A stretch of 64,000 nucleotides of DNA, taken from Myxococcota bacterium. Lineage in GTDB: Bacteria > Myxococcota_A > UBA796 > CAJQPC01. Below, piece after piece: positions 3,961-63,042 of this stretch. Position numbers and translations under genes: made by a program. Positions within the stretch are counted from its first letter, which is position 1, and every line of letters starts with the position of its first letter. The DNA lies in assembly GCA_036229005.1 (NCBI GenBank), contig JAZAMN010000003.1:8202-72201 (forward strand), read 5' to 3'. The notes beneath the pieces are model-generated. The model saw only the letters and a list, made by a program, of their open reading frames with translations, made no database searches and was not told the DNA's origin.

Positions 3961-4637
3961 AGCCCGCAGCGCCCATCCTCTCCTCCGCTCCCCAGCTCGA
4001 CCGGAGCAAGAGCCCCAAGCGGCTCGTGCAGGAGCAGTTCGCCCGGGTGATGGTCAAGCAGCTCCGGGAGTCGCTCCCCGAGGACGTGATGGGCGGCCCC
4101 TTCTCGGACGCCTTCGCGGGGATCTTCGATGAGGCGATGGCGACCTCGCTGGTGGAGTCGGGGGGAATGGACATCCCCTGGAATGTGCCCGGGCCTGCGG
4201 TCGCGTGGCCGGTGCCAGGCTTTGACCGCATCTCCAGCGACTACGGGATGCGCGAGGCACACCCGGTGCACGGGGATCGACGCATGCACCACGGCGTCGA
4301 CATCCCGGCCCCCATGGGGAGCGACATCCACCCCGTCCGCGAGGGCACCGTGCTGCGCGTCCGGGAGACCGAGGGGGGCTACGGCCGGCTGCTGGAGATC
4401 CAGCACGAGGACGGCATGGTCAGCCGCTACGCGCACTGCGAGGCCATCCTGGTGTCGCCCGGTGATCGGGTGGATCCGGGCCAGGTGGTTGCGCTCGTGG
4501 GCAACAGCGGCGACTCGACGGGGCCCCACCTGCACCTGGAGATCCGGGTGGACGGGGAGGCTGTGGATCCCAGGGAGCATTTGCCCTTGAAGCGCCGAGA
4601 AGGGGCCGAGGGATCGGATCACGATCACAATCCCTAA
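3957..4637 (+). CDS. flgJ: FlgJ-like rod-binding domain fused to an M23 metallopeptidase domain
   Basis: GTGA overlap with flgI. N-terminal part (LVQEQFARVMVKQLRESLP...FAGIFDEAMATSLVESGGMDI) resembles the FlgJ rod-binding domain. C-terminal part carries M23 motifs HHGVDI and GNSGDSTGPHLHLEIRVDGEAVDP. Confidence 0.8.
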   Translation: MKPAAPILSSAPQLDRSKSPKRLVQEQFARVMVKQLRESLPEDVMGGPFSDAFAGIFDEAMATSLVESGGMDIPWNVPGPAVAWPVPGFDRISSDYGMREAHPVHGDRRMHHGVDIPAPMGSDIHPVREGTVLRVRETEGGYGRLLEIQHEDGMVSRYAHCEAILVSPGDRVDPGQVVALVGNSGDSTGPHLHLEIRVDGEAVDPREHLPLKRREGAEGSDHDHNP

Positions 4638-4661
4638 AGTCCCGATCTCTGAGTCCGTAGA
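4635..4661 (+). promoter_or_regulatory. candidate sigma-28-type promoter upstream of flgM
   Basis: TAAA (4635-4638, overlapping the flgJ TAA stop)-N15-TCCGTAGA (4654-4661). The implied transcription start lies just before the GGAGG-led ATG at 4694. Confidence 0.4.
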
Positions 4662-4693
4662 GGTCGATGTACCCCCGGATTCGGAGGCTCCCC

Positions 4694-4960
4694 ATGAAGA
4701 TCGACGGCCTGGCCCACGTCCTGCGACTGCAGAGCGGCCCCACCCGCGCCCAGCCCGCGGCCCGGAGCAGCGCCCCAACTGGGGGTGTGAAGCTGTCCGG
4801 GACCGCATCCTGGATCCAGGAGATGCAGGCGCAGGCGGATGAGCCCGCCGGCGTGCGCATGGATCTGGTCAACGAGATGAAGGCGGCCATCGCGGATGGA
4901 AGCCTGGAGTCGTCCGTGGACATGGACAAGGTCCTGGACGGCTTGCTGGCGGAGCTGTGA
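4694..4960 (+). CDS. flgM: anti-sigma-28 factor FlgM
   Basis: Small protein with C-terminus VRMDLVNEMKAAIADGSLESSVDMDKVLDGLLAEL, the FlgM family pattern. GGAGG lies 6 nt upstream of ATG 4694. The longer ORF start at 4667 has no RBS. Confidence 0.75.
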   Translation: MKIDGLAHVLRLQSGPTRAQPAARSSAPTGGVKLSGTASWIQEMQAQADEPAGVRMDLVNEMKAAIADGSLESSVDMDKVLDGLLAEL

Positions 4961-5286
4961 GCGCCGCCGGGCTGCTGGACGAGCTGCTGGCTGTCACCGA
5001 GCGCCAGCTCTCGGCCGCGCGGGCCCTGGACGCCCAGGCGCTGGACCAGAGCTCCCAGGAGCGGGCGGATCTGCTCTTTGAGCTGGAGGTCGAGCTCCAG
5101 CAGGAGGAGCTCTGGGCCCTCAGCGATGACGAGAAGGCGGCGCTGCGCCCCCGAATCGAGGCCCTGGTCGCGCTCGAGGAGCGGCTGGCGGTGGTGGTGA
5201 CCATGGTGAACGACTCGCTGGGCCAGGCGCTCAGCGGCGGGGAGACGACCTACGGTCGGCCCAAGGGAGGCCCCAAGTGGGGGTGA
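4957..5286 (+). CDS. flgN: FlgN-like flagellar export chaperone
   Basis: 109-aa helical protein (LLDELLAVTERQLSAARALDAQALDQSSQERADLLFELE...). GTGA overlap with flgM. Immediately precedes flgK, the usual FlgN position. Confidence 0.55.
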   Translation: MSAAGLLDELLAVTERQLSAARALDAQALDQSSQERADLLFELEVELQQEELWALSDDEKAALRPRIEALVALEERLAVVVTMVNDSLGQALSGGETTYGRPKGGPKWG

Positions 5287-54995: not shown

Positions 54996-57683
54996 TCAGT
55001 GGGCCTCCAGCCACTCAGCAATGGTGGAGCCCATCCAGCCCCCGCTGCCATCGGCCGCTGCCTCCATTCCGGGGCGCAGGCCGGGCCAGTCGGGGGGATC
55101 CCGCAGGATGGGGTCCCAGTGCTCGCGGCTGTTGTGCTGCAGGATGCCGGAGAGCAGCTTGACGGTGCTGGGGGCCTCGGGGAGGCTCATCAGGGCCTGC
55201 ACGCAGTACCGGTGCAGGTAGCCGGGGCGTCCGCGGACCTTGGGCTCCATGCACAGCAGCGCGACGGCGGCCTCCAGGGCTTCGCGGGCCTCGGGGACCT
55301 CGACGAGCAGCATGGCGCAGGCCTCGCGGCCGTGGATCTTGGGGTCGGCCACGGCGTCGATGCGCTCCTGCTGGGACATGGCCTCGGCCTCCAGGCGGTC
55401 GACCCAGCGGGGGGGCTGAACGCCGGCGGCCTCCGCGAGCGCGGCGTCCAGCGTGGGGCAGCGTCCGAAGGCGGCTTCGAGGGCGTCGGGGGAGGGCTGG
55501 AGCGCAAAGAGCTTCATCGCGCGCAGGGCCATGCGGCGGGCGTCCAGATCGGAGCTGTCGTCGTAGCCATAGTGCCTCAGGCAGGCGTCCAGCTCCGGGG
55601 TGGGCTCGCGGCCCTCCAGCAGGGCCAGGCCCAGCTTTGACTGGGGGTAGCGGCTGGCGTAGGGGACGACCCGGCCCAGCTCGGCGCGGTGTGGGGAGCG
55701 CGCGAGGGCCATAAGAGCCATGCCGTTCTCGTTGCCGTCGTTGCGTCCCGCGCTGATCTTGAGGGCCTCACAGACCTCCAGATCCAGGGCCTCCGGGGCA
55801 TAGCTGGCGAGCGCCAGGGCGGCCTCACAGCGCACCTCTCCCAGGCGCAGGCCGCTGACCTTTGCGTAGCGGAGGAGCTGGGTGCGGTCGTCGACCCGGA
55901 GCGCGCCCAGGGCCCGCATCGCCGCGCTCAAGAAAGCCTTGTAGTTCAGGGTGGTGTCGAAGCCGTCGTCTGCGGGGAGCTGGGCGACCAGGGCATTCAG
56001 GGCCGGCCCCGCGGCCTCCACCGAGAGCGCGCCGGCGAGCGTGGGCAGCACCTGGACCTGCCAGGTGTTCAGGGACTCCCTGGGGTCCAGCGGCTCGATG
56101 CCCGCGACGATGGCCGCGTGTCCGGCCGGGTGGAGCTCCACCGCGCTCAGGGCCAGGATGTCTCGCGCCTTGCGTCCGTCCAGGCCACGCTGTCCCTCGG
56201 GCATGGACGAGCCGTGCAGCGCGATCCCGAGCAGCAGGAGCTGTGTGGCGGTGTTCAACGAGAGCGCCGAGCGCCGGACCATGTCCTCCTCCTCCCGGGA
56301 GTACTGCTCACACTCCCCCTCAATGAGCAGGGAGAGGGACTGCCGCAGCGTTCGGTGTTCGGGGGCACACCACAGCGCCTGCAGGGCCACCTGGTTCAAC
56401 TTGGGGTCCTCAAAGCAAGCGAGGACACGCTGGAGCCTCCCGGTCTCATCCAGCTCGGGCAGCTCGGCGACCAGCTTCTTCCGCTCCAGGCGCTCTCGAA
56501 GCGCCCTGGCCTTGGCCTCGGCCTCTCGCTGCTCGGCCCGCGCGGGGTCCAGATCCAGGGCCCGGAAGCGCGCCAGGGAGGCCGGCCAGTCGTGGTGCTT
56601 GCCCAGGCTCTGGCGGCCCGCCTGCAGCTCGCGGATCAGCTTGATGGCGTCCTGGACGATGCGGCCCGGGTGCTCGGCGGCGGCCTCCATGAAGGGCTCC
56701 AGGTGGGGCTCGTCAAAGAGGTAGGCGCGCCAGATGCTGTAGAGCGCGGTCGGTGTCGCCTTGGTGATCATGTCCAGGCGACCCTGCAGAGCGTCGTCGG
56801 GGACCACCTCGTTGAGGTTCTCGTAGAACACGTCCCCGGCCTCTTCGATGCTCCAGTTGGAGGGGTGGCTGAGCAGGGTGAAGATCCAGCGCGCCCGGTA
56901 GCCAAAGTAGAGCGCCGCGGACTGCCCCGGCTCGGCCTTGAAGGGCTCGAAGTCCTCGTCGTAGTCGTCGATCGAGAAGTGCCAGCTCGGGGCCACCTTG
57001 CCGTGCAGGGCCTCGAACGCGGCGGCCTGGACCTCCTCGGAGAGCTGCTCTTCGCCGGCGGCCTTGCACAGGGCGTTCAGGAACACGCTGTGCTGCAGGT
57101 CCGGGCTGAACACGCCGGCAAAGAAGCCGCGGTTGTGGTCCCAGCGCAGGACCTGGGGCTGGGGGTCCCCCGGGTAGGTGTCCAGGTGGAAGCTGTCGCC
57201 GTCGCCCAGGTCACCCAGGGGCAGGGTGCCCGCGAACACCCCGGCCAGGCCGTTGCCCAGGTAGTTGAGCTGGTCGGCCAGCAGGAGCTGCTCAAAGAGG
57301 TTGATGCCTTCGGGCGGCAGGCGCACCTGGCGGGAGACCAGGCGGAGCTCATCGAAGGTGGAGTAGGGGTTGACCTGGCCCTGGACCGCGCGCTCGAAGT
57401 CGACAAAGCGCTGCGGCGCGGGGATGCCCAGCGTCGGCTCGATGTCGCGGCTGTCACCGGTCCACAGGCCGTGGCTGGCTGCCATGGCCTCGCGCTGCCA
57501 CTGGGGGCCTTCGTGGTGGGCGAAGTCCTCGGCCGAGGCGGTGGGGTAGGGGCCTTGGGGCGGGAGCTGTCCCTCCTCCTCCGGGAGCCCGTTCTGGGCA
57601 CAGACGAAGCGCCGCAGCCGGGAGAGAGGACCGTCCAGGAAGCCCTCGGGGCCGTCCTGGAAGAGGGGGTCGAGCTCAGACAT
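54996..57683 (-). CDS. large (895 aa) hypothetical cytoplasmic protein with a helical-repeat C-terminal half
   Basis: Protein-like composition throughout and no signal peptide. I see no catalytic motif. The opposite-strand ORFs are Arg/Gly-rich shadows. Confidence 0.6.
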   Translation of the reverse strand: MSELDPLFQDGPEGFLDGPLSRLRRFVCAQNGLPEEEGQLPPQGPYPTASAEDFAHHEGPQWQREAMAASHGLWTGDSRDIEPTLGIPAPQRFVDFERAVQGQVNPYSTFDELRLVSRQVRLPPEGINLFEQLLLADQLNYLGNGLAGVFAGTLPLGDLGDGDSFHLDTYPGDPQPQVLRWDHNRGFFAGVFSPDLQHSVFLNALCKAAGEEQLSEEVQAAAFEALHGKVAPSWHFSIDDYDEDFEPFKAEPGQSAALYFGYRARWIFTLLSHPSNWSIEEAGDVFYENLNEVVPDDALQGRLDMITKATPTALYSIWRAYLFDEPHLEPFMEAAAEHPGRIVQDAIKLIRELQAGRQSLGKHHDWPASLARFRALDLDPARAEQREAEAKARALRERLERKKLVAELPELDETGRLQRVLACFEDPKLNQVALQALWCAPEHRTLRQSLSLLIEGECEQYSREEEDMVRRSALSLNTATQLLLLGIALHGSSMPEGQRGLDGRKARDILALSAVELHPAGHAAIVAGIEPLDPRESLNTWQVQVLPTLAGALSVEAAGPALNALVAQLPADDGFDTTLNYKAFLSAAMRALGALRVDDRTQLLRYAKVSGLRLGEVRCEAALALASYAPEALDLEVCEALKISAGRNDGNENGMALMALARSPHRAELGRVVPYASRYPQSKLGLALLEGREPTPELDACLRHYGYDDSSDLDARRMALRAMKLFALQPSPDALEAAFGRCPTLDAALAEAAGVQPPRWVDRLEAEAMSQQERIDAVADPKIHGREACAMLLVEVPEAREALEAAVALLCMEPKVRGRPGYLHRYCVQALMSLPEAPSTVKLLSGILQHNSREHWDPILRDPPDWPGLRPGMEAAADGSGGWMGSTIAEWLEAH

Positions 57684-57770: not shown

Positions 57771-59183
57771 TCAGGGGGTGGGCTGCTCGGCCTCGGGGAC
57801 CTGCTCCCCCTTGATCCCCAGGCGGCTGGCCTCCTCCCGGAGCTCCTCCTTGATCTTGCGGCGGTGGGCGTTCAGGTCCCGCACGGTGGCGATCTCCCCG
57901 CGCTTGTCGTAGTCGGCCCGCACCACCGCCATGCGCTCGTTCACCGCCGCCCGCGCGGCCTCGTTGTAGTCGCGCTGCTGCTCCGCCCACTCCATGAAGC
58001 TCAGTCGCTGCTCGCGCTTGGCCGCCAGGAAGGAGTCCAGCTTCTCGCCGGGGGTCATGGGCGCGATGGCCTCGACGCTCTCCTTCCAGCCGGTCATCTC
58101 GCCCACCGGGACCTCGGAGTCCACGATGGTGCCCTTGGCGGAGGCGACCTCCAGGACGCCCTGCCCCCAGCGCTGGTCGATGCGGAAGTCCAGGTTGCCC
58201 GAGAGCTTGAGGCGCATCTCGTAGACCTGGTCACCGTCGCGGCGGCGCAGCATGTAGCGGCCGGGGGGCAGGGCCAGCACGATCTGCTCGTCGGGGGACT
58301 TGTGGAGCTCGGCCACGAGCTGCTTCCCGGGGTCGGTGAGCACCAGGATGTGGCCGCCAAAGCCCGGCTTGAGGGTCACCCGCGCGTCGTCGTGGGTCAG
58401 GCGGGTCAGCGGCAGCTCGCCCTGGCCCTTGAGGTGCGTCTCGTAGACCGGGTGCTGGGTGCCCGCCAGGGTCCCGTCGGTGCTGGTGACCGTGCGCTCG
58501 TAGGCGTAGCTGTAGGCCTCGTTCAGGGAGACCACGCCATCGCCGTTGTCGGCCGCGCCGCGCAGCCCGGTGACCAGGTGGTGGGTGAAGAAGCTGCCCG
58601 CCAGCCGGTCGGACTCCTGGGCCCGCTCGCTCGCGGAGGAGGCGGTGATCCACACCTCGCCGGTCGACGACAGCGAGGTCCCCAGGAAGGGGTCCACGAC
58701 CTGCGCGCCCTTGGAGCTGGTGATGGCGCCCGACTGGCAGGCGTCCAGCACGCCCAGGCGCACCTCGGCGTCGATGCGCGTGATGTCCTCGCGCAGGGTC
58801 TCGAAGCGGTAACGGCTCTCCCCAAGCCGCAGCCCAGCCGCGTCGGCGTGCCCCGAATAGTAGAAGAAGAACAGCTCCTCCTCCTCCTGCCCCGAGGCCG
58901 TCGCGAAGGCCTCCAGCCATTGGGACAGCTCGCCCACGGTGGGGGAGTCCAGGACCACCACGTCCTCCGGGTTGAAGCCGCCCAGGTCGATCAGGGTCTC
59001 GGCGACCCGGTGGGCGTCCTTCTCGGCGTACTGCAGGGTCTCCAGGTCCAGTCCACCGTCGTTGTGGCCCACAACCAGGGCGCGCCGCACGACCTCGGCC
59101 TGGGCGTCGGACGCGGCGAAGGCCGACACCGCCAGGGCGCCGACCAGGGTGGAGCGGGAGAGGGCTCGGAGCGCGCGGGACAT
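57771..59183 (-). CDS. secreted caspase-fold (peptidase C14) protein
   Basis: Signal MSRALRALSRSTLVGALAVSAFAASDAQA. Catalytic dyad context FFFYYSGHADAAG and GVLDACQSGA. Beta-rich and helical C-terminal regions. Confidence 0.8.
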   Translation of the reverse strand: MSRALRALSRSTLVGALAVSAFAASDAQAEVVRRALVVGHNDGGLDLETLQYAEKDAHRVAETLIDLGGFNPEDVVVLDSPTVGELSQWLEAFATASGQEEEELFFFYYSGHADAAGLRLGESRYRFETLREDITRIDAEVRLGVLDACQSGAITSSKGAQVVDPFLGTSLSSTGEVWITASSASERAQESDRLAGSFFTHHLVTGLRGAADNGDGVVSLNEAYSYAYERTVTSTDGTLAGTQHPVYETHLKGQGELPLTRLTHDDARVTLKPGFGGHILVLTDPGKQLVAELHKSPDEQIVLALPPGRYMLRRRDGDQVYEMRLKLSGNLDFRIDQRWGQGVLEVASAKGTIVDSEVPVGEMTGWKESVEAIAPMTPGEKLDSFLAAKREQRLSFMEWAEQQRDYNEAARAAVNERMAVVRADYDKRGEIATVRDLNAHRRKIKEELREEASRLGIKGEQVPEAEQPTP

Positions 59184-59186
59184 CAG

Positions 59187-59909
59187 CTACTCCTTCTCAA
59201 AGTGCAGGGTGCGCAGGACCCCACCGTCCGGGACATCGTGCTTCAAGATTGCCTGACGGATCTGGGCCTCGCTGGGCTGCTCGCGGGTGAACAGGGCGTA
59301 GAAACGCTGCTCCCCCGGCGTTCCATCCATCTGCAGGGCAAAGGGGGCCTGCAGGATCTGCAGCTCGGAGTCGGCCTTGATGGTGCCGTAGAGCTCCACG
59401 ACCCCGTGCCCGTCCACTCCGCCAAAGCTCACGTAGGGCCGCTCCATCGTCGAGAACTTGAGCTGCAGCACGTCCCCGGCGTGGAGCACGTCGTCCGTGT
59501 CCAACAGCACCGGGCCCTCGCGGGTGTCCAGCCAGGCCTCCAGCAGGATGTGCTCGCCCTTGGAGCGGGTCTGCGCGTAGGGGTTGTCCGAGGCAGGCTC
59601 CTTCGGGGAGAGGAGCAGCGGGAAGGCCACCAGCACTGCTGCAGCCACCGCCATCAACACCCAGCGCCAGGCACTGTTGTCATTGGCTGGCATCGGCGAG
59701 GTGCGGCTGCCCGGCTCCCGCTCGGCGGCGCGGCGGATCGCCTCTGGGACGGGCTCAAGCACGAAGGCGTTGCGGTTGGCCTCCTGGGCGCCCAGGCGGC
59801 CCGCGCAGCGCTCACAGTCCTGGATGTGGGCCCGGGCCTGGGCCTCCGCGGCGGGGTCCAGCTCGCCGTAGCGGAGCTGGTTCAGCATCAGGGTGGAGAG
59901 GTGGGACAT
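59187..59909 (-). CDS. anti-sigma factor (zf-HC2, one TM, periplasmic DUF4384-like domain)
   Basis: H-x3-C-x2-C in AHIQDCERCAGRL. TM segment AWRWVLMAVAAAVLVAFPLLL. The periplasmic part reads LHAGDVLQLKFSTMERPYVSFGGVDGHGVVELYG...GEQRFYALFT. Ends 3 nt before the caspase-fold gene. Confidence 0.75.
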   Translation of the reverse strand: MSHLSTLMLNQLRYGELDPAAEAQARAHIQDCERCAGRLGAQEANRNAFVLEPVPEAIRRAAEREPGSRTSPMPANDNSAWRWVLMAVAAAVLVAFPLLLSPKEPASDNPYAQTRSKGEHILLEAWLDTREGPVLLDTDDVLHAGDVLQLKFSTMERPYVSFGGVDGHGVVELYGTIKADSELQILQAPFALQMDGTPGEQRFYALFTREQPSEAQIRQAILKHDVPDGGVLRTLHFEKE

Positions 59910-59919
59910 GGTCTGGTCC

Positions 59920-60525
59920 TCAGAGGGCGTTGAGCTCTTGGAGCCACGGGGGAGGGTTCGTCTCGAGCTGGGCCTTGAACTTGGCCACGCGCTTGCGGAT
60001 GGCGGCGGCGCTCAGGCCCAGCAGATCGCCGATCTCGGCGTAGGTCATGCCGTCGACGTAGTGGTACAGCACGCAGTCCTGGGTGCCCTCGTCCGCCTCG
60101 TCCAGCAGACGGGCCACGAGATCGCGCAGGTCCGCGCCGGTGAGAAAGGTGTCTTCGACCGGGACCACGGCCTCCTCTTCCTGGAGGTCCTCGCGGCGCC
60201 GGCCGCGGGAGCGCAGGCGGTTCAGGCAGGTCGTCGTGGTGACCTTGAACAGCCAGGTGCTGGGCCGGGACTCACCCCGGAAGCTGTCGCGGTAGCGGTG
60301 GGCCTTCAAGAAGACCTCCTGGCAGACATCCTGGGCGTCGGCCTCGTTGCGCAGCAGGCTGCGGCAGCGGCCCAGGACCATGTCGCCATAGGCGCGGTAG
60401 AGAGCCTCGACATCGAGTTCCACGGAGGTGCCCGCCTTGCTTTGAGCGTTGCTCTGGCGCTGGGCCCTAACCCGGGGAGAGGCCACGGCGGCCTCCCCCT
60501 GGGCGGAGGGATGTCCTGGGGACAT
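59920..60525 (-). CDS. ECF (sigma-70 family group 4) sigma factor
   Basis: Region 2 is DAQDVCQEVFLKAHRYRDSF...STWLFKVTTTTCLNRLR; region 4 is YHYVDGMTYAEIGDLLGLSAAAIRKRVAKFK. The start is uncertain: ATG 60525, the ORF start at 60555, or GTG 60423. Confidence 0.85.
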   Translation of the reverse strand: MSPGHPSAQGEAAVASPRVRAQRQSNAQSKAGTSVELDVEALYRAYGDMVLGRCRSLLRNEADAQDVCQEVFLKAHRYRDSFRGESRPSTWLFKVTTTTCLNRLRSRGRRREDLQEEEAVVPVEDTFLTGADLRDLVARLLDEADEGTQDCVLYHYVDGMTYAEIGDLLGLSAAAIRKRVAKFKAQLETNPPPWLQELNAL

Positions 60526-60545
60526 CGGGATGGCGGCGCTGCGGC

Positions 60546-61034
60546 TCACTCGCACTCGCCGGAGTCGTCGCTGCCCCAGTCCGTGCCGCTGTGGCCGGAC
60601 CCGACGGGGTAGATGGTGAAGGCACCCGGCAGCAGCTCGGCGTCACCGTCGGCGAACTCCAGGATGGCGTCGACCTCACCGAGCTCGGCGTCCTCGTCCA
60701 CCGACAGGATCGTGGTGATCTGGCCGTCCTCGACGACCTGGGCCATCACCTCGACGTCGCCGTAGAACACCATCGTGGCCTCGCTCAGGTCGAGCTCGCC
60801 GCTCTCCAGGCTGAGGATCCCGGCAAAGGTCTCGCCCTGCTCTGCGTGGCCGGGAACGAACTTGAGGACCGCAGGCTCAGCCTCCTCGCCGTCCTCGTCC
60901 ACCGCGGTGTCGTCGTCCCACTCGTCCAGCTCGCAGCCCCACTCGTCGTCCGAGCAATCGCCGTCGTAGTAGATGCAGCCAGAGGTGATGGACAGGAATC
61001 CCAGCAGGGGGAGGGCGCTCAGGTACTTGCTCAT
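60546..61034 (-). CDS. hypothetical acidic lipoprotein, first gene of the ECF operon
   Basis: MSKYLSALPLLGFLSITSGC lipobox. Cys- and Asp/Glu-rich N-terminal part (CIYYDGDCSDDEWGCELDEWDDD), then a beta-rich domain. Confidence 0.55.
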   Translation of the reverse strand: MSKYLSALPLLGFLSITSGCIYYDGDCSDDEWGCELDEWDDDTAVDEDGEEAEPAVLKFVPGHAEQGETFAGILSLESGELDLSEATMVFYGDVEVMAQVVEDGQITTILSVDEDAELGEVDAILEFADGDAELLPGAFTIYPVGSGHSGTDWGSDDSGECE

Positions 61035-61161
61035 GGGGGTGTCTCCTCGAATGTCGACCGCGACGGTTGTTGTCGGTCGGCTCTATGGACACCGCCTCTG
61101 GCTCTGGGCGTTACCGCTGGATCGGAATAAGGGATCAGCGCTTGTAACAAAGAAGAAACGA

Positions 61162-61977
61162 ATGCCTGAAAAAGCTTATAAGAACCTGGATTTTCTCAAC
61201 TCGCCCGCCGCTCGACTCATCCGGATCCAGTGTGAGTACAGCGAGCCGCAGGCCCGCTTCCGCCGCATGGGCGTCGAAGACACCATCGTGATGTACGGCT
61301 CGGCACGCACGCTGCCGGGCAACGTGGCTCAGCTTCGCCTGCAACACGCCAAGGAGGCCCTGGCCAAGGCCAAGGGCAAGGAGGAGAAGGCCAAGCTCGA
61401 GGCCGAGCTCAAGGTGGCCGAGGGCAAGCTCGCCAACTCCCGCTACTACGACGAGACCCGCGAGCTGGCCCGCCGCCTGACCCGCTGGGGCATGACCCGC
61501 CCCGGTGGCCGCGAGTACCTGATCTGCACGGGCGGTGGCCCCGGCATCATGGAGGCCGGAAACCGCGGCGCCGCCGATGTCGAGGGGGGCCGCAGCGTCG
61601 GCCTGGGCATCAGCCTGCCCTTCGAGGAGCGCCTGAACCAGTACGTCTCCAAGGACCTGGGCTTCGTGTTCCACTACTTCTTCATGCGGAAGTACTGGTT
61701 CATGTACCTGGCCAAGGCCATGGTGGTGCTGCCCGGCGGCTTCGGCACGCTGGACGAGCTCTTCGAGCTGCTGACCCTGCGCCAGACCGGAAAGGTCCGC
61801 AAGCAGCTCCCGATCGTGCTCTTCGGCAAGGCCTACTGGGAGAAGGTGCTCAACCTGCAGGCCATGGTGGACTACGGCACCATCGCGCCGGATGACCTGG
61901 ACATGTTCTTCACCACGGACTCCGTGGACGAAGCCTACGAGTTCCTGACCGTCCAGCTCCGCAAGGTCTGGGGTTAG
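61162..61977 (+). CDS. LOG/TIGR00730-family nucleotide 5'-monophosphate nucleosidase-like protein
   Basis: TGGGPGIMEAGNRGA and VVLPGGFGTLDELFE (PGGxGTxxE) motifs. 271 aa from ATG 61162, which is preceded by an AT-rich leader. Confidence 0.8.
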   Translation: MPEKAYKNLDFLNSPAARLIRIQCEYSEPQARFRRMGVEDTIVMYGSARTLPGNVAQLRLQHAKEALAKAKGKEEKAKLEAELKVAEGKLANSRYYDETRELARRLTRWGMTRPGGREYLICTGGGPGIMEAGNRGAADVEGGRSVGLGISLPFEERLNQYVSKDLGFVFHYFFMRKYWFMYLAKAMVVLPGGFGTLDELFELLTLRQTGKVRKQLPIVLFGKAYWEKVLNLQAMVDYGTIAPDDLDMFFTTDSVDEAYEFLTVQLRKVWG

Positions 61978-61986
61978 TCCAGCTCG

Positions 61987-63042
61987 ATGCAGACCACCCA
62001 CCGCTTGCTCCTTGGCGATGCCCGCGAGCTGGCGGGGGTGGATCCGGGGTCGGTGCAGCTCGTCCTGACCTCGCCGCCCTACCCGATGGTGCAGATGTGG
62101 GATCCGGCCTTCGGGGCCATGGATCCCCGCATCCAGCAGCACCTCGCCGATGCCGACGGGCTCGCTGCCTTTGAGGCCATGCACGCCCAGCTCGATGCGG
62201 TGTGGGCGCGCTGTGTGGACGCCCTGATCCCCGGCGGCTTCTGCTGCATCAACATCGGGGACGCCACCCGGTCGCTGGGGGGGCAGTTCCGCCTCTTCCA
62301 CAACCACGCCCGCATCGTGCAGAGCATGGTGGCGCTGGGCATGAGCGTGCTGCCGGACATCCTCTGGCGAAAGCCCACGAACGCCCCCAGCAAGTTCATG
62401 GGCTCGGGGATGCTGCCGGCGGGGGCCTACGTCACCTATGAGCACGAATACGTGCTGATCTTCCGCAAGGGCGGCAAGCGCGCGTTCAGCAGCCAGGAGC
62501 AGCGGGCCAGGCGCAGCCGCAGCGCCTACTTCTGGGAGGAGCGCAACCTGTGGTTCTCGGACCTCTGGGAGCTCCATGGCGCGCGTCAGAAGCGGACCAG
62601 CGGGGGCCGGGACCGCAGCGCGGCCTTCCCCTTGGAGCTGCCCTACCGGCTCATCCAGATGTACTCCGTGCAGGGGGACTGCGTGTTGGACCCCTTCGTG
62701 GGGACCGGGACCACCCTCCAGGCCGCGCTGGCGAGCGGACGCAGCAGCGTTGGGGTGGAGATCGACCCCGAGCTGGCCCAGGGCGTGCTCCCCGGGCTGG
62801 AGGCTTCGCAGGGGCTGGGGGAGGCTCTGGGTGCTCGGCGCTTGAGGGCCCACCAGGACTTCGTGCGGGGCCGCCTGGAGGCTGGAAAGGACTTCAAGCA
62901 CGCAAGCGAGGTCTACGCTTTCCCTGTGGTGACCCGGCAGGAGCGCACGCTGGAGCTGCTGGCCTGCGTCGGGGTCGAGCGGGCAGGGGACAGTCTCCGG
63001 GCGGAGCACGCCCGCTGCACCCTGGAGCCCAGCGTGGGATAG
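61987..63042 (+). CDS. beta-class N4/N6 DNA methyltransferase (SPPY motif), apparently orphan
   Basis: Motif IV LVLTSPPYP lies near the N-terminus and motif I VLDPFVGTGTTLQAA near residue 235, the beta-class order. About 100 aa of C-terminal extension. No nuclease gene adjacent. Confidence 0.85.
   Translation: MQTTHRLLLGDARELAGVDPGSVQLVLTSPPYPMVQMWDPAFGAMDPRIQQHLADADGLAAFEAMHAQLDAVWARCVDALIPGGFCCINIGDATRSLGGQFRLFHNHARIVQSMVALGMSVLPDILWRKPTNAPSKFMGSGMLPAGAYVTYEHEYVLIFRKGGKRAFSSQEQRARRSRSAYFWEERNLWFSDLWELHGARQKRTSGGRDRSAAFPLELPYRLIQMYSVQGDCVLDPFVGTGTTLQAALASGRSSVGVEIDPELAQGVLPGLEASQGLGEALGARRLRAHQDFVRGRLEAGKDFKHASEVYAFPVVTRQERTLELLACVGVERAGDSLRAEHARCTLEPSVG

Follow-up and report, generated by a model that had tools for sequence, protein, structure and literature searches.

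On the minus strand of the window, by which we mean the whole 64-kb stretch of DNA analysed, positions 57771-61115 form a cassette in which a promoter-like motif precedes four closely spaced genes. Their products are an acidic lipoprotein, an ECF sigma factor, a single-pass anti-sigma factor and a Sec-exported caspase-fold protein with an intact active site. The cassette is found conserved across hundreds of bacterial species, and its gene arrangement is far beyond chance: the anti-sigma gene is present at 74 of the 75 related caspase loci counted, each of which had at least 1.5 kb of upstream DNA. We tentatively read the cassette as an envelope signalling module in which the orthocaspase is dedicated to the anti-sigma factor as its site-1 protease, a reading to which we give slightly less than an even chance. 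If true, it would provide a defined target for bacterial caspase relatives and an ECF stress-type switch coupled to a secreted caspase-like protease.

Gene content and layout

All four open reading frames called by the first-pass annotation were found where it placed them, and its topology and intact His/Cys dyad were right as well. The tight packing that it described (at most about 20 nt) fits the measured junctions: the lipoprotein and sigma genes overlap by 10 nt (or are separated by a 20-nt gap), 10 nt lie between the sigma and anti-sigma genes, and 3 nt between the anti-sigma and caspase genes. The features, all on the minus strand, are as follows.

61088-61115, minus: candidate ECF-dependent promoter, GGTAAC-N16-GGTGTC, 54 nt 5' of the lipoprotein start codon
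60546-61034, minus: acidic lipoprotein, 162 aa, with signal peptide, lipobox Cys20, acidic linker and C-terminal beta-rich domain
59920-60555, minus: ECF (group IV) sigma factor, 211 aa from GTG, or 201 aa from ATG at 60525
59187-59909, minus: single-pass class I (zinc-finger type) anti-sigma factor, 240 aa (zf-HC2 and AF2 model)
59721-59909, minus: its cytoplasmic anti-sigma domain, aa 1-63, with H28-x3-C32-x2-C35 at 59805-59828
59610-59675, minus: its transmembrane helix, aa 79-100 (AF2 helix 79-99 and hydrophobicity scan)
59556-59570, minus: its juxtamembrane motif T114-R115-S116-K117-G118, candidate site-1 cleavage site, after Lys117
59190-59555, minus: its periplasmic beta-sandwich ectodomain, aa 119-240, probable divergent DUF4384 (pLDDT 93-98)
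57771-59183, minus: Sec-exported peptidase-C14 protein, orthocaspase/metacaspase-like, 470 aa (Peptidase_C14)
59097-59183, minus: its signal peptide, aa 1-29, ending AQA (read from sequence)
58428-59090, minus: its caspase-fold catalytic domain, aa 32-252, with His112 at 58848-58850 and Cys149 at 58737-58739
58707-58721, minus: its loop motif T155-S156-S157-K158-G159, candidate autoprocessing site
58179-58412, minus: its Ig-like beta-sandwich, aa 258-335 (pLDDT about 90), 3' of the caspase domain as in MALT1
58131-58136, minus: its K350-G351, second conserved basic-Gly site, where the Ig-like domain meets a disordered linker
57813-58049, minus: its C-terminal helical hairpin, aa 379-457, specific to a short (about 470 aa) clade

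The ECF call agrees with matches to Sigma70_r2 (E 7e-18) and Sigma70_r4_2 (E 1.2e-8) in Pfam and with a match above cut-off to TIGR02937 in NCBIfam (88.8 bits, cut-off 42.9). The lipoprotein, which has the lipobox TSGC and matches nothing in Pfam, NCBIfam or PADLOC, had been described as acidic and Cys-rich; its mature part contains 42 Asp/Glu against 1 Lys/Arg and three Cys after the lipobox Cys, so the first term is accurate and the second holds only moderately. Its 34 homologs that adjoin the cassette share the lipobox motif GC[IV][IVY]Y[DE] and have median contents of 22% Asp/Glu and 2.6% Lys+Arg.

The H-x3-C-x2-C motif claimed for the anti-sigma factor is present, and the match to zf-HC2 (E 5e-4, 20.5 bits) is just short of the gathering score of 22.2; the zinc ligands are retained in the close clade and gone in distant relatives. 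The AF2 model (mean pLDDT 85.9) consists of helices at residues 6-63, a transmembrane helix at 79-99 and a beta-sandwich at 123-239. For the window protein alone, the proposed resemblance of this ectodomain to DUF4384 falls below the Pfam cut-off (PF14326, E 0.13, 12.8 bits, gathering score 27), with a match that spans profile positions 3-80 of 81, but it stands at the level of the family: PF14326 matches 21 of 54 relatives (best E 7.8e-5), and the ectodomain profile matches, at 4.9e-39, the anti-sigma factor P0177, which scores 60.4 bits against PF14326 (hhalign probability 96.6%). These sequence comparisons support the ectodomain as a divergent homolog of DUF4384 at family level; its fold has only generic Ig-like matches in the PDB.

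The caspase-fold protein matches Peptidase_C14 well above the gathering score of 21.4 (E 4.6e-14, 53.1 bits), has the motifs YYSGHA (His112) and DACQSG (Cys149), and shares a hydrophobic N-terminal leader with all of its aligned relatives. Its YSGHA aligns on the YSGHG of AtMC4 and AtMC9, which places His112 on the metacaspase catalytic His, and its Asp56 aligns on the Asp of the metacaspase 'ND'. The catalytic residues are invariant across the family (His 85/85, Cys 86/86 sequences), as are Asp56 (84/84) and Asp147, two residues ahead of the catalytic Cys (86/86). Among solved structures, AtMC9, AtMC4 and the yeast metacaspase are the best sequence matches of the family profile; Foldseek returned MALT1 caspase-Ig3 as the top structural match (about 390 alignment columns), with caspases and metacaspases also at the top, at E of about 1e-7 to 1e-8. 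No sequence relation was found between the Ig-like domain and DUF4384. Most relatives are 575-800 aa long and have a DUF5683/TM2-like segment and a beta-rich tail in place of the hairpin; the short clade is without this membrane-associated C-terminal region, and geometry may thus differ between clades.

Conservation of the genes and of the promoter motif

At 68 of the 75 caspase loci the distance from the end of the anti-sigma gene to the first caspase strand is 12-49 codons, the length of one signal peptide; six further loci fall within 69-112 codons or are explained by an ORF-call artefact. A sigma homolog is also upstream, directly 5' of the anti-sigma gene, at 67 of these loci. Seen from the anti-sigma side, a C14 gene comes next in all eight single-domain homologs with downstream DNA, and the start and stop codons of the two genes often overlap. 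The MAGs that contribute these loci carry labels from at least five phyla (Myxococcota, Acidobacteriota, Spirochaetota, Gemmatimonadota and Fibrobacterota), and the genes that flank the loci are unrelated. The expectation that four genes would co-occur was borne out for the sigma, anti-sigma and caspase genes across phyla, and is valid for the full set only in the closer subclade, because the lipoprotein was detected only there (34 loci, E <= 1e-3). A search of the window for CRISPR-like arrays found none, and the cassette has no defence island attached.

GGTAAC-N16-GGTGTC occurs as a single exact match within the window. The form GGTA[AG]C-N16-GGTGTC, its spacer fixed at 16 nt, is carried by 34 of 93 scanned sequences, in most of them on the cassette strand and just 5' of the cassette. 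Six loci have a second copy 3' of the caspase gene, which in two of them (L031, L042) lies directly ahead of a lipoprotein gene relocated 3' of the caspase gene with its own promoter copy kept. The same motif is found, with no local sigma gene, at an orphan caspase paralog (L068) and at L052, where a lipoprotein form of the ectodomain, without the anti-sigma domain and the KG motif described below, pairs with a caspase paralog. Of the two controls, one case each, L052 is one and P0177 the other: this anti-sigma factor has four true DUF4384 repeats, no adjacent caspase and no KG motif.

Basic-glycine motifs and predicted specificity

The juxtamembrane motif of the anti-sigma factor is near-invariant, with the consensus [DE]x[TVI]-R-x-[KR]-G and Lys to Arg as the sole substitution: K117 and G118 do not vary in the 54-member alignment, and no other periplasmic residue outside the domain core is invariant; the loci together include 69 distinct KG versions, with RG in 7 loci. 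The motif stands at a fixed distance from the ectodomain and at 8-134 residues from the transmembrane helix; model pLDDT is below 50 for residues 107-114 and averages 52 over the block 111-120. In the protease, a motif with the family consensus T-R-x-K-G-[AG] lies in a disordered loop (residues 155-168, pLDDT below 50), nine residues past the catalytic Cys; 72 of 72 distinct sequences have KG, 68 have T at -3 and 63 have R at -2, the window's own T-S-S-K-G being without the Arg. The second basic-Gly site, in a region disordered in the model (residues 345-394), is KG in 49 of 88 sequences and RG in 35 of 88, and its choice of Lys or Arg does not co-vary significantly with that at the anti-sigma site. 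In these genomes, where Lys is rare, KG has a frequency of 0.0017 per position, and TR.KG is expected less than 0.04 times per 240 aa against a background that includes the family itself.

Asp56 and Asp147 occupy positions that we take to form the acidic S1 pocket of Arg/Lys-specific members, as in the TbMCA2 and MALT1 structures; the protease is metacaspase-like, and these two invariant residues predict cleavage after Lys or Arg. That the anti-sigma motif at the ectodomain boundary mirrors the motif in the protease's post-Cys loop is indirect support for a protease-substrate link, as is the Arg/Lys type of the predicted pocket. The loop motif could, alternatively, have a structural or catalytic role instead of marking a processing site.

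Proposed circuit, alternatives and related systems

We infer binding, cleavage, the position of the cut, the order of events and the signal as follows: the cytoplasmic zinc-finger domain would hold the ECF sigma factor at the inner membrane; the periplasmic orthocaspase from the same cassette would dock on, or recognise, the periplasmic DUF4384 domain; activation of this protease may involve self-cleavage in the T-R-x-K|G loop and at the basic-Gly site past the Ig domain; the active protease would cut the anti-sigma factor after Lys117, in the T-R-S-K|G segment between membrane and DUF4384 domain, removing the ectodomain and leaving a stub of about 17 residues; an RseP-type site-2 protease and cytoplasmic proteases would degrade the stub and free the sigma factor; and the latter would transcribe the cassette from GGTAAC-N16-GGTGTC, yielding acidic lipoprotein, more protease and more anti-sigma factor. 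Since the sigma factor would transcribe its own cassette, protease and anti-sigma factor included, such a circuit would have positive feedback.

The same promoter arrangement also suits an alternative in which the caspase is an effector: the sigma factor would induce a secreted protease and lipoprotein that act on other periplasmic or foreign proteins, while the DUF4384 domain senses another envelope signal or ligand and the anti-sigma factor is switched off by a housekeeping site-1 protease or by a change of conformation. The caspase gene comes last in an operon with a conserved ECF-type promoter at its head, the L068 orphan and the L052 pair carry this promoter without a local sigma gene, and lipoprotein genes relocated with their own promoter are typical of regulon targets; the 3' position of the caspase gene in a sigma-dependent operon, together with L068, suggests that the protease is at least also a regulon output. 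As the full explanation we nevertheless consider this unlikely, if a realistic contender: ECF regulon outputs usually vary by lineage, whereas the caspase is as constant as the anti-sigma factor and often translationally coupled to it, and neither the basic-Gly motif common to the ectodomain edge and the protease loop nor its absence from P0177, the sole sampled DUF4384 anti-sigma factor without a caspase neighbour, is accounted for. The ectodomain might instead be a tethered inhibitor or pseudo-substrate, its DUF4384 domain and T-R-x-K-G leader filling the caspase active site at the inner membrane, so that the signal is the protease being pulled away or activated and the anti-sigma factor reports by release or conformation, with no need of cutting. 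The pairing of DUF4384 with a caspase occurs in cis in orthocaspase fusions (PMC7475262). It also outlasts loss of the anti-sigma domain at L052; the motif distance is fixed to the domain and not to the membrane, and translational coupling suggests matched amounts. However, the L052 lipoprotein form is without the KG motif, which is therefore dispensable for the pairing itself, and proteolysis is the usual route to inactivation of single-pass class I anti-sigma factors, conformational signalling through one transmembrane helix being uncommon; we regard the inhibitor reading as unlikely too. Mere co-inheritance of neighbours, with the shared motif a coincidence of two unrelated conserved sites, is very hard to credit in view of the cassette's retention in five or more labelled phyla amid unrelated flanks, the overlapping stop and start codons, and the conservation in both partners of a rare residue, Lys.

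The proposed site-1 protease function has counterparts in known systems. The proposed circuit resembles Escherichia coli sigmaE/RseA/DegS/RseP (and the analogous Bacillus subtilis sigmaW/RsiW/PrsW): a single-pass anti-sigma factor restrains an ECF sigma factor, its periplasmic part stands in the way of intramembrane cleavage, and the putative role of the periplasmic site-1 protease is to take that part off near the membrane. Unlike DegS and PrsW, the candidate is a C14 cysteine protease rather than a serine protease or metalloprotease, and its gene shares the operon of the anti-sigma gene, which it follows immediately; the ectodomain is of the DUF4384 type rather than RseA-like, and its cleavage is predicted. 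Site-1 proteases such as DegS and PrsW are not known to have their genes in the operon that they switch on, a point against the site-1 reading.

The first-pass view that this is not an established ECF activation mechanism needs qualifying, as two precedents unite a caspase-fold protease with a sigma inhibitor: DdvA, where cleavage is only proposed, and Craspase, where it is shown but cytoplasmic. In DdvS/DdvA of Myxococcus xanthus, likewise in Myxococcota, the transmembrane anti-sigma factor is again of the zinc-finger type and is joined to a periplasmic protease of caspase fold with a His-Cys dyad; this protease, a fused TPR-CHAT domain about 900 residues long that is without three active-site helices, is proposed to self-cleave, in trans within a dimer, as site-1 protease ahead of RseP, a cleavage that its authors could not demonstrate (PMC11506125). 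In contrast, the C14 protein described here is secreted, is not fused to the anti-sigma factor and brings an Ig-like domain of its own, and the anti-sigma ectodomain is a small DUF4384 domain. In type III-E Craspase, the TPR-CHAT protease Csx29 cleaves Csx30 (PMC10028731), an inhibitor of the ECF factor CASP-sigma/RpoE; in one group of Csx30 proteins the C-terminal domain is a member of DUF4384 (bioRxiv 10.1101/2022.08.17.504292), the family in which we place the ectodomain. Craspase is cytoplasmic, RNA-guided and CRISPR-associated, with a soluble Csx30, whereas cleavage here is predicted at the periplasmic side of the membrane, by a protease of metacaspase type. DUF4384 is also fused to orthocaspases (PMC7475262, PMC6426788), in some of them C-terminally (PMC7475262). 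With orthocaspases and metacaspases (C14B; for example Microcystis MaOC1 and the plant proteins AtMC4 and AtMC9) the protein shares fold, His (YSGH) and Cys (D-x-C-x-S-G) motifs and acidic residues at the predicted S1-pocket positions; the characterised members are cytoplasmic and without an assigned regulatory substrate, whereas the present family is Sec-exported, includes an Ig domain like that of MALT1 and is tied firmly to a sigma/anti-sigma operon.

Genes and proteins of the cassette

The first-pass annotation described four co-directional genes, for an acidic lipoprotein, an ECF sigma factor, a single-pass anti-sigma factor and a secreted peptidase C14 protein. This description is correct, because gene features, domain matches, models and the caspase fold agree: the open reading frames, the domain matches, the topology and the His/Cys dyad are all present. 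The lipoprotein and sigma genes overlap by 10 nt (or are separated by 20 nt, depending on the sigma start chosen), 10 nt separate the sigma and anti-sigma genes, and 3 nt separate the anti-sigma and caspase genes. The G+C content of the region (~70%) is the same as that of the remaining window. The features, in window coordinates, are:

61088-61115, minus strand, predicted promoter motif, the only exact match within 64 kb
60546-61034, minus strand, lipoprotein, 162 aa
59920-60555, minus strand, ECF sigma factor, 211 aa from a GTG start (201 aa from an ATG at 60525)
59187-59909, minus strand, anti-sigma factor, 240 aa
57771-59183, minus strand, caspase-fold protease, 470 aa

The sigma factor matches Sigma70_r2 (64.6 bits, gathering score 24, E 7e-18), Sigma70_r4_2 (34.8 bits, gathering score 25.7, E 1.2e-8) and TIGR02937 (88.8 bits, cut-off 42.9), with no match to a sigma-3 domain in Pfam or NCBIfam; this is the domain composition of an ECF (group IV) sigma factor. 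The main text of the ECF classification paper (PMC7826278) makes no mention of a caspase-linked ECF group. The N-terminal helical domain of the anti-sigma factor carries the zinc motif H28-IQD-C32-ER-C35 (H-x3-C-x2-C) of class I zinc-binding anti-sigma (ZAS) factors. Its match to zf-HC2 (PF13490; 20.5 bits, E 5e-4) falls just below the gathering score of 22.2; 21 of 54 anti-sigma relatives match this family (best E 2.4e-6), and the zinc ligands are lost in distant relatives. An AlphaFold2 model of the anti-sigma factor (mean pLDDT 85.9) consists of an N-terminal helical bundle (residues 6-63, pLDDT 94-98), one transmembrane helix (79-99), a low-confidence linker, and a periplasmic ectodomain of ~120 residues folded as a beta-sandwich with one helix (123-239, pLDDT 93-98).

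The assignment of this ectodomain to DUF4384 in the first-pass annotation stands for the family and falls short for the single sequence. Alone, the ectodomain scores 12.8 bits (E 0.13) against PF14326, under the gathering threshold of 27 bits, in a match that spans profile positions 3-80 of 81 at residues 143-210; 21 of the 54 aligned relatives match PF14326 at E values up to 1 (best 7.8e-5). Searched against 1.84 billion proteins, a profile of the ectodomain (A4) retrieves 6,668 representative ones at E <= 0.001; of the 150 best, nearly all share the anti-sigma layout, in 230-300 aa. The same profile matches the anti-sigma homolog P0177 at 4.9e-39 (hhalign probability 96.6%, E 5.6e-10), and P0177 itself scores 60.4 bits on PF14326. 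Profile comparison through P0177 thereby links the ectodomain to DUF4384 at the family level.

The protease has a signal peptide ending in AQA and a caspase-fold domain that scores well above the Peptidase_C14 threshold (PF00656; 53.1 bits, gathering score 21.4, E 4.6e-14, residues 33-250, profile positions 2-227 of 233) and places it in that family. Its match to NCBIfam NF047832 (caspase, EACC1-associated type; 77.4 bits) lies under the curated cut-off of 140 and gives no membership of that group. After the caspase fold, the model shows residues 258-335 as an Ig-like domain (pLDDT ~90), 345-394 as disordered and 379-457 as a helical hairpin. The best Foldseek matches in the PDB are the caspase-Ig3 unit of MALT1, caspases and metacaspases (E 3e-8 to 5e-7), and the family profile finds plant and yeast metacaspases as its best solved relatives. 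The Ig-like domain was considered as a further DUF4384 domain and rejected (hhalign probability 0.1%). Most caspase relatives (loci L001-L088) are longer, at 575-800 aa, and lack the helical tail found in the window (columns ~600-1000 of A2, the alignment of caspase relatives); their tails carry a 'PGAGQxYNGQW' segment (Pfam DUF5683/DUF6677) followed by a beta-rich end with motifs such as GLGVHFGR. Some of these long relatives are named 'TM2 domain-containing' by NCBI, two members have weak OprF matches, and some contain MORN_2 repeats; the region might serve as an anchor in either the inner or outer membrane.

The motifs YYSGH112A and DAC149QSG occupy the positions of the catalytic dyad. YSGHA aligns on the catalytic YSGHG of AtMC4 and AtMC9, the aligned His being the catalytic His86 of AtMC4, and D-A-C149-x-S-G fits the metacaspase pattern D-x-C-H-S-G; the His is kept in 85 of 85 sequences of the family and the Cys in 86 of 86. 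Asp56 aligns on the Asp of the metacaspase 'C-x-N-D' motif, Asp147 lies two residues before Cys149, and neither varies in the 84-86 sequences compared, nor do His112 and Cys149. Asp147 (Cys-2) and Asp56 ('ND') presumably form the wall of the S1 pocket, as in the structures of TbMCA2 and MALT1 from the Arg/Lys-specific branch; Asp-specific caspases have Gln and Arg at those S1 positions. The predicted Arg/Lys specificity would fit a scissile bond after a conserved Lys or Arg.

The lipoprotein carries a lipobox (...SITSG-C20) after its signal peptide, and its mature part is extremely acidic (42 Asp/Glu versus 1 Lys/Arg); searches of Pfam, NCBIfam and PADLOC gave no match, and DUF4384 was rejected as an identity for its C-terminal domain (hhalign probability 1.3%). 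Homologs adjoin the cassette in 34 loci, only in the closer Myxococcota-like subclade (for example L004 6831-7364 and L009 4068-4646). The family shares the lipobox motif GC[IV][IVY]Y[DE] and has medians of 22% Asp/Glu and 2.6% Lys/Arg, several members having no Lys or Arg at all. Such a composition would resist an Arg/Lys-specific protease, or would suit the binding of cations.

Conservation of the unit and its predicted promoter

There is strong evidence that the sigma factor, anti-sigma factor and caspase form a functional unit. All eight single-domain anti-sigma homologs with enough downstream DNA show the order ECF sigma, anti-sigma, Peptidase_C14, and this order holds down to ~25% identity with unrelated flanks. 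From the caspase side, a pattern scan of species-representative genomes found at least 570 loci that encode relatives (570 of the 600 stretches listed). The best 80 of these were retained; after their open reading frames had been called, an anti-sigma HMM and the sigma sequence served as queries against them, and the 75 with at least 1.5 kb of upstream DNA were counted. In 68 of these 75 an anti-sigma homolog ends 12-49 codons before the first caspase strand, the length of one signal peptide; in six it lies within 69-112 codons or the distance reflects an artefact of ORF calling; and a single locus, L068, has none. A sigma gene is also present upstream in 67 of the 75. The loci come from metagenome-assembled genomes (MAGs) labelled Myxococcota, Acidobacteriota, Spirochaetota, Gemmatimonadota, Fibrobacterota/Chitinispirillia and others, some of these labels (such as 'Klebsiella') being obviously wrong.

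An 895-aa ORF (54996-57683, minus strand) begins 87 nt 3' of the caspase gene. In syntenic relatives a convergent M24 aminopeptidase gene directly follows the caspase gene, and the ORF therefore lies outside the module; it lacks matches in Pfam, NCBIfam and PADLOC as well as homologs throughout the 98 related loci, and appears to be an insertion specific to this lineage.

When sequences upstream of the lipoprotein genes were searched for dyads, GGTA[AG]C(G)-N16-GGTGTC emerged, its spacer length never varying. The motif GGTA[AG]C-N16-GGTGTC occurs in 34 of the 93 sequences scanned (a 5-kb segment of the window and 92 loci), in most carriers immediately before the first gene and in the same orientation as the cassette. 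From its conservation it is read as the promoter recognised by the cassette's own sigma factor; the cassette would then have the arrangement typical of ECF systems, with a cognate anti-sigma gene directly downstream of the sigma gene and an autoregulated promoter, promoter activity being predicted from the motif. The minimal regulon would then comprise the cassette itself and the lipoprotein. At locus L068 (5899-8124) the motif directly precedes an orphan caspase paralog whose upstream 6 kb contain neither a sigma nor an anti-sigma gene. Second copies of the motif (GGTAGC-N16-GGTGTC) lie 3' of the caspase gene in loci L027 (9642), L031 (9657), L042 (7976), L043 (4964), L047 (7763) and L050 (7706), and those of L031 and L042 stand directly before a relocated lipoprotein gene.

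Basic-Gly motifs and models of regulation

K117 and G118 are the sole invariant residues outside the domain core in the alignment of 54 anti-sigma sequences. Over all loci the consensus is [DE]-x-[TVI]-R-x-K-G, with 69 distinct KG versions and R-G in seven loci. The motif lies 8-134 residues past the transmembrane helix yet always ~6 residues before the first ectodomain strand, in or beside the low-confidence linker of the model. A similar motif follows the catalytic Cys of the caspase family (C-x-S-G-x-x-T-R-x-K-G-[AG]), where, among 72 distinct sequences, all have K-G, 68 the T and 63 the R. Within the catalytic domain, model confidence is low in this loop (155-168) alone, and the loop occupies the position where processing separates the large and small subunits of caspases and metacaspases. 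These genomes use little Lys, and a stretch of 240 residues is expected to contain TR.KG fewer than 0.04 times against a background that includes the family itself. A second basic-Gly pair of the caspase, K350-G351, marks the point where the Ig-like domain passes into the disordered linker (49 KG and 35 RG among 88 sequences); co-variation of Lys and Arg between the anti-sigma site and this pair is not significant (5/7 versus 27/67).

Two loci separate the elements. In L093 (4158-6982) an ECF sigma gene is followed by that of P0177, a 758-aa anti-sigma-like protein with a duplicated N-terminal segment, one transmembrane helix and four tandem true DUF4384 domains; this single case has no neighbouring caspase gene and no KG motif after the transmembrane helix. 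L052 (5484-7851), from the same MAG as L043, is a reduced second copy without a sigma gene, in which the motif is followed by a lipoprotein form of DUF4384 (151 aa, lipobox LTVGC, with neither an anti-sigma domain nor a KG motif) and then by a caspase paralog. These loci, one case each, fit the view that the DUF4384 domain pairs with the protease and that the KG motif goes with detaching that domain from an anti-sigma factor. The motifs, together with the predicted Arg/Lys specificity, are circumstantial evidence pointing to a protease-substrate relation between the caspase and the anti-sigma factor. The first-pass proposal that the caspase binds or cleaves the anti-sigma ectodomain is partly supported.

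The best-supported reading, a plausible one that we hold tentatively, is that the sigma factor is controlled by regulated proteolysis with the orthocaspase as dedicated site-1 protease. The protease would dock on the DUF4384 domain and cut the anti-sigma factor after Lys117 (candidate site T-R-S-K117|G); the remaining stub of ~17 residues would be cleared by an RseP-type protease and cytoplasmic proteases, and the sigma factor thus released would induce the cassette, giving positive feedback. The trigger might be calcium, envelope damage or the lipoprotein; metacaspases are commonly calcium-dependent. The conjunction of a co-encoded periplasmic site-1 protease, recognition of DUF4384 and cleavage at the protease's own processing motif (T-R-x-K|G) is possible and, taken as a whole, somewhat doubtful.

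A purely downstream role, in which the protease is simply an output of the regulon, is consistent with its position in the operon and with the orphan paralogs that carry the same promoter, and seems unlikely. Slightly less likely still is that the ectodomain, acting as a tethered inhibitor or pseudo-substrate, signals which state the protease is in. Both of these accounts are compatible with parts of the site-1 protease model, and the protease may be at once trigger and amplified output. That the adjacency of the genes carries no meaning at all, given the order seen in unrelated flanks, is highly improbable.

Related systems, significance and neighbouring genes

The logic of the site-1 protease model is that of sigmaE/RseA/DegS, from which the cassette differs in that its protease is a cysteine protease and is encoded in the operon. 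In M. xanthus DdvA a periplasmic TPR-CHAT protease is fused to a zinc-finger anti-sigma factor, and self-cleavage ahead of RseP has been proposed (PMC11506125). The cassette is not of this type: its ectodomain is a beta-sandwich, its protease is a separate C14 protein, and Pfam finds no TPR or CHAT match. In the type III-E Craspase, Csx29 cleaves Csx30, an inhibitor of an ECF sigma factor (PMC10028731). That system is CRISPR-linked and its TPR-CHAT protease cytoplasmic, whereas the cassette protease has a signal peptide and the anti-sigma factor a transmembrane helix, which sets the cassette apart from Craspase; no CRISPR-like repeat array is present within the window. A phage-defence system was considered and rejected, PADLOC giving only a weak match to a generic caspase model (25.9 bits). 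DUF4384 is an established accessory domain of cyanobacterial orthocaspases. From these, as from DdvA and Craspase, the cassette is distinguished by its protease, which is a separate protein of metacaspase type, exported by Sec and bearing a MALT1-like Ig domain, and by a small DUF4384 anti-sigma ectodomain, without a CRISPR-like array or defence context. No description of a sigma/anti-sigma/caspase cassette was found in the literature searched, whose coverage leaves out most subscription journals.

Bacterial caspase homologs are many, but for most of them, to our knowledge, neither a natural substrate nor a role has been assigned. A cassette that joins an ECF sigma factor and its anti-sigma factor to an orthocaspase offers a testable answer for some of them, as it provides one protease, a candidate substrate, a candidate scissile bond and a transcriptional read-out from its own promoter. 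The family is large and spread across phyla, with at least 570 caspase relatives in species-representative genomes and ~6,700 representative clusters of the ectodomain. If the orthocaspase is indeed a site-1 protease, the cassette would represent a widespread new route of ECF activation that adds a cysteine-protease branch. We know of no bacterial orthocaspase with a previously defined physiological substrate, and the anti-sigma factor would be the first. DUF4384 would then be a general docking or substrate module for caspase-fold proteases, a role that would explain both its fusions to orthocaspases and its occurrence in Craspase Csx30. Periplasmic signalling would also share its logic with Craspase and DdvA: a sigma inhibitor would be the target of a caspase-fold protease, and DUF4384 would be the module held in common. 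Should the protease instead be an effector, the cassette would still mark out a conserved regulon for envelope stress, with a caspase-like protease that is secreted as its main product.

Several neighbouring genes were recorded. At L091, from a MAG labelled Anaeromyxobacter, a gene for a Peptidase_M50 protein of the site-2 protease family (4315-5241) lies 3 kb from the cassette (~2.3 kb upstream of its sigma gene), probably incidentally, as it is found at one locus only. The anti-sigma homolog P0159 (L089, 7522-10795) bears the NCBI name 'ActD-like protein', and its cassette is preceded by a gene encoding HisKA, receiver and guanylate-cyclase domains; a possible link would be to the actABCD operon of M. 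xanthus, which times the production of C-signal. In the window, a LOG-family gene (Lysine_decarbox/SLOG; 60973-61977, plus strand) and a gene for an N6/N4 DNA methyltransferase (61987-63042, plus strand) are divergent from the cassette. L004 and L007 keep the LOG-family gene in synteny with the cassette. In the window this gene contains a 33-nt tandem repeat (61367-61432; two copies, 75% match) that encodes a Lys/Ala/Glu-rich segment.
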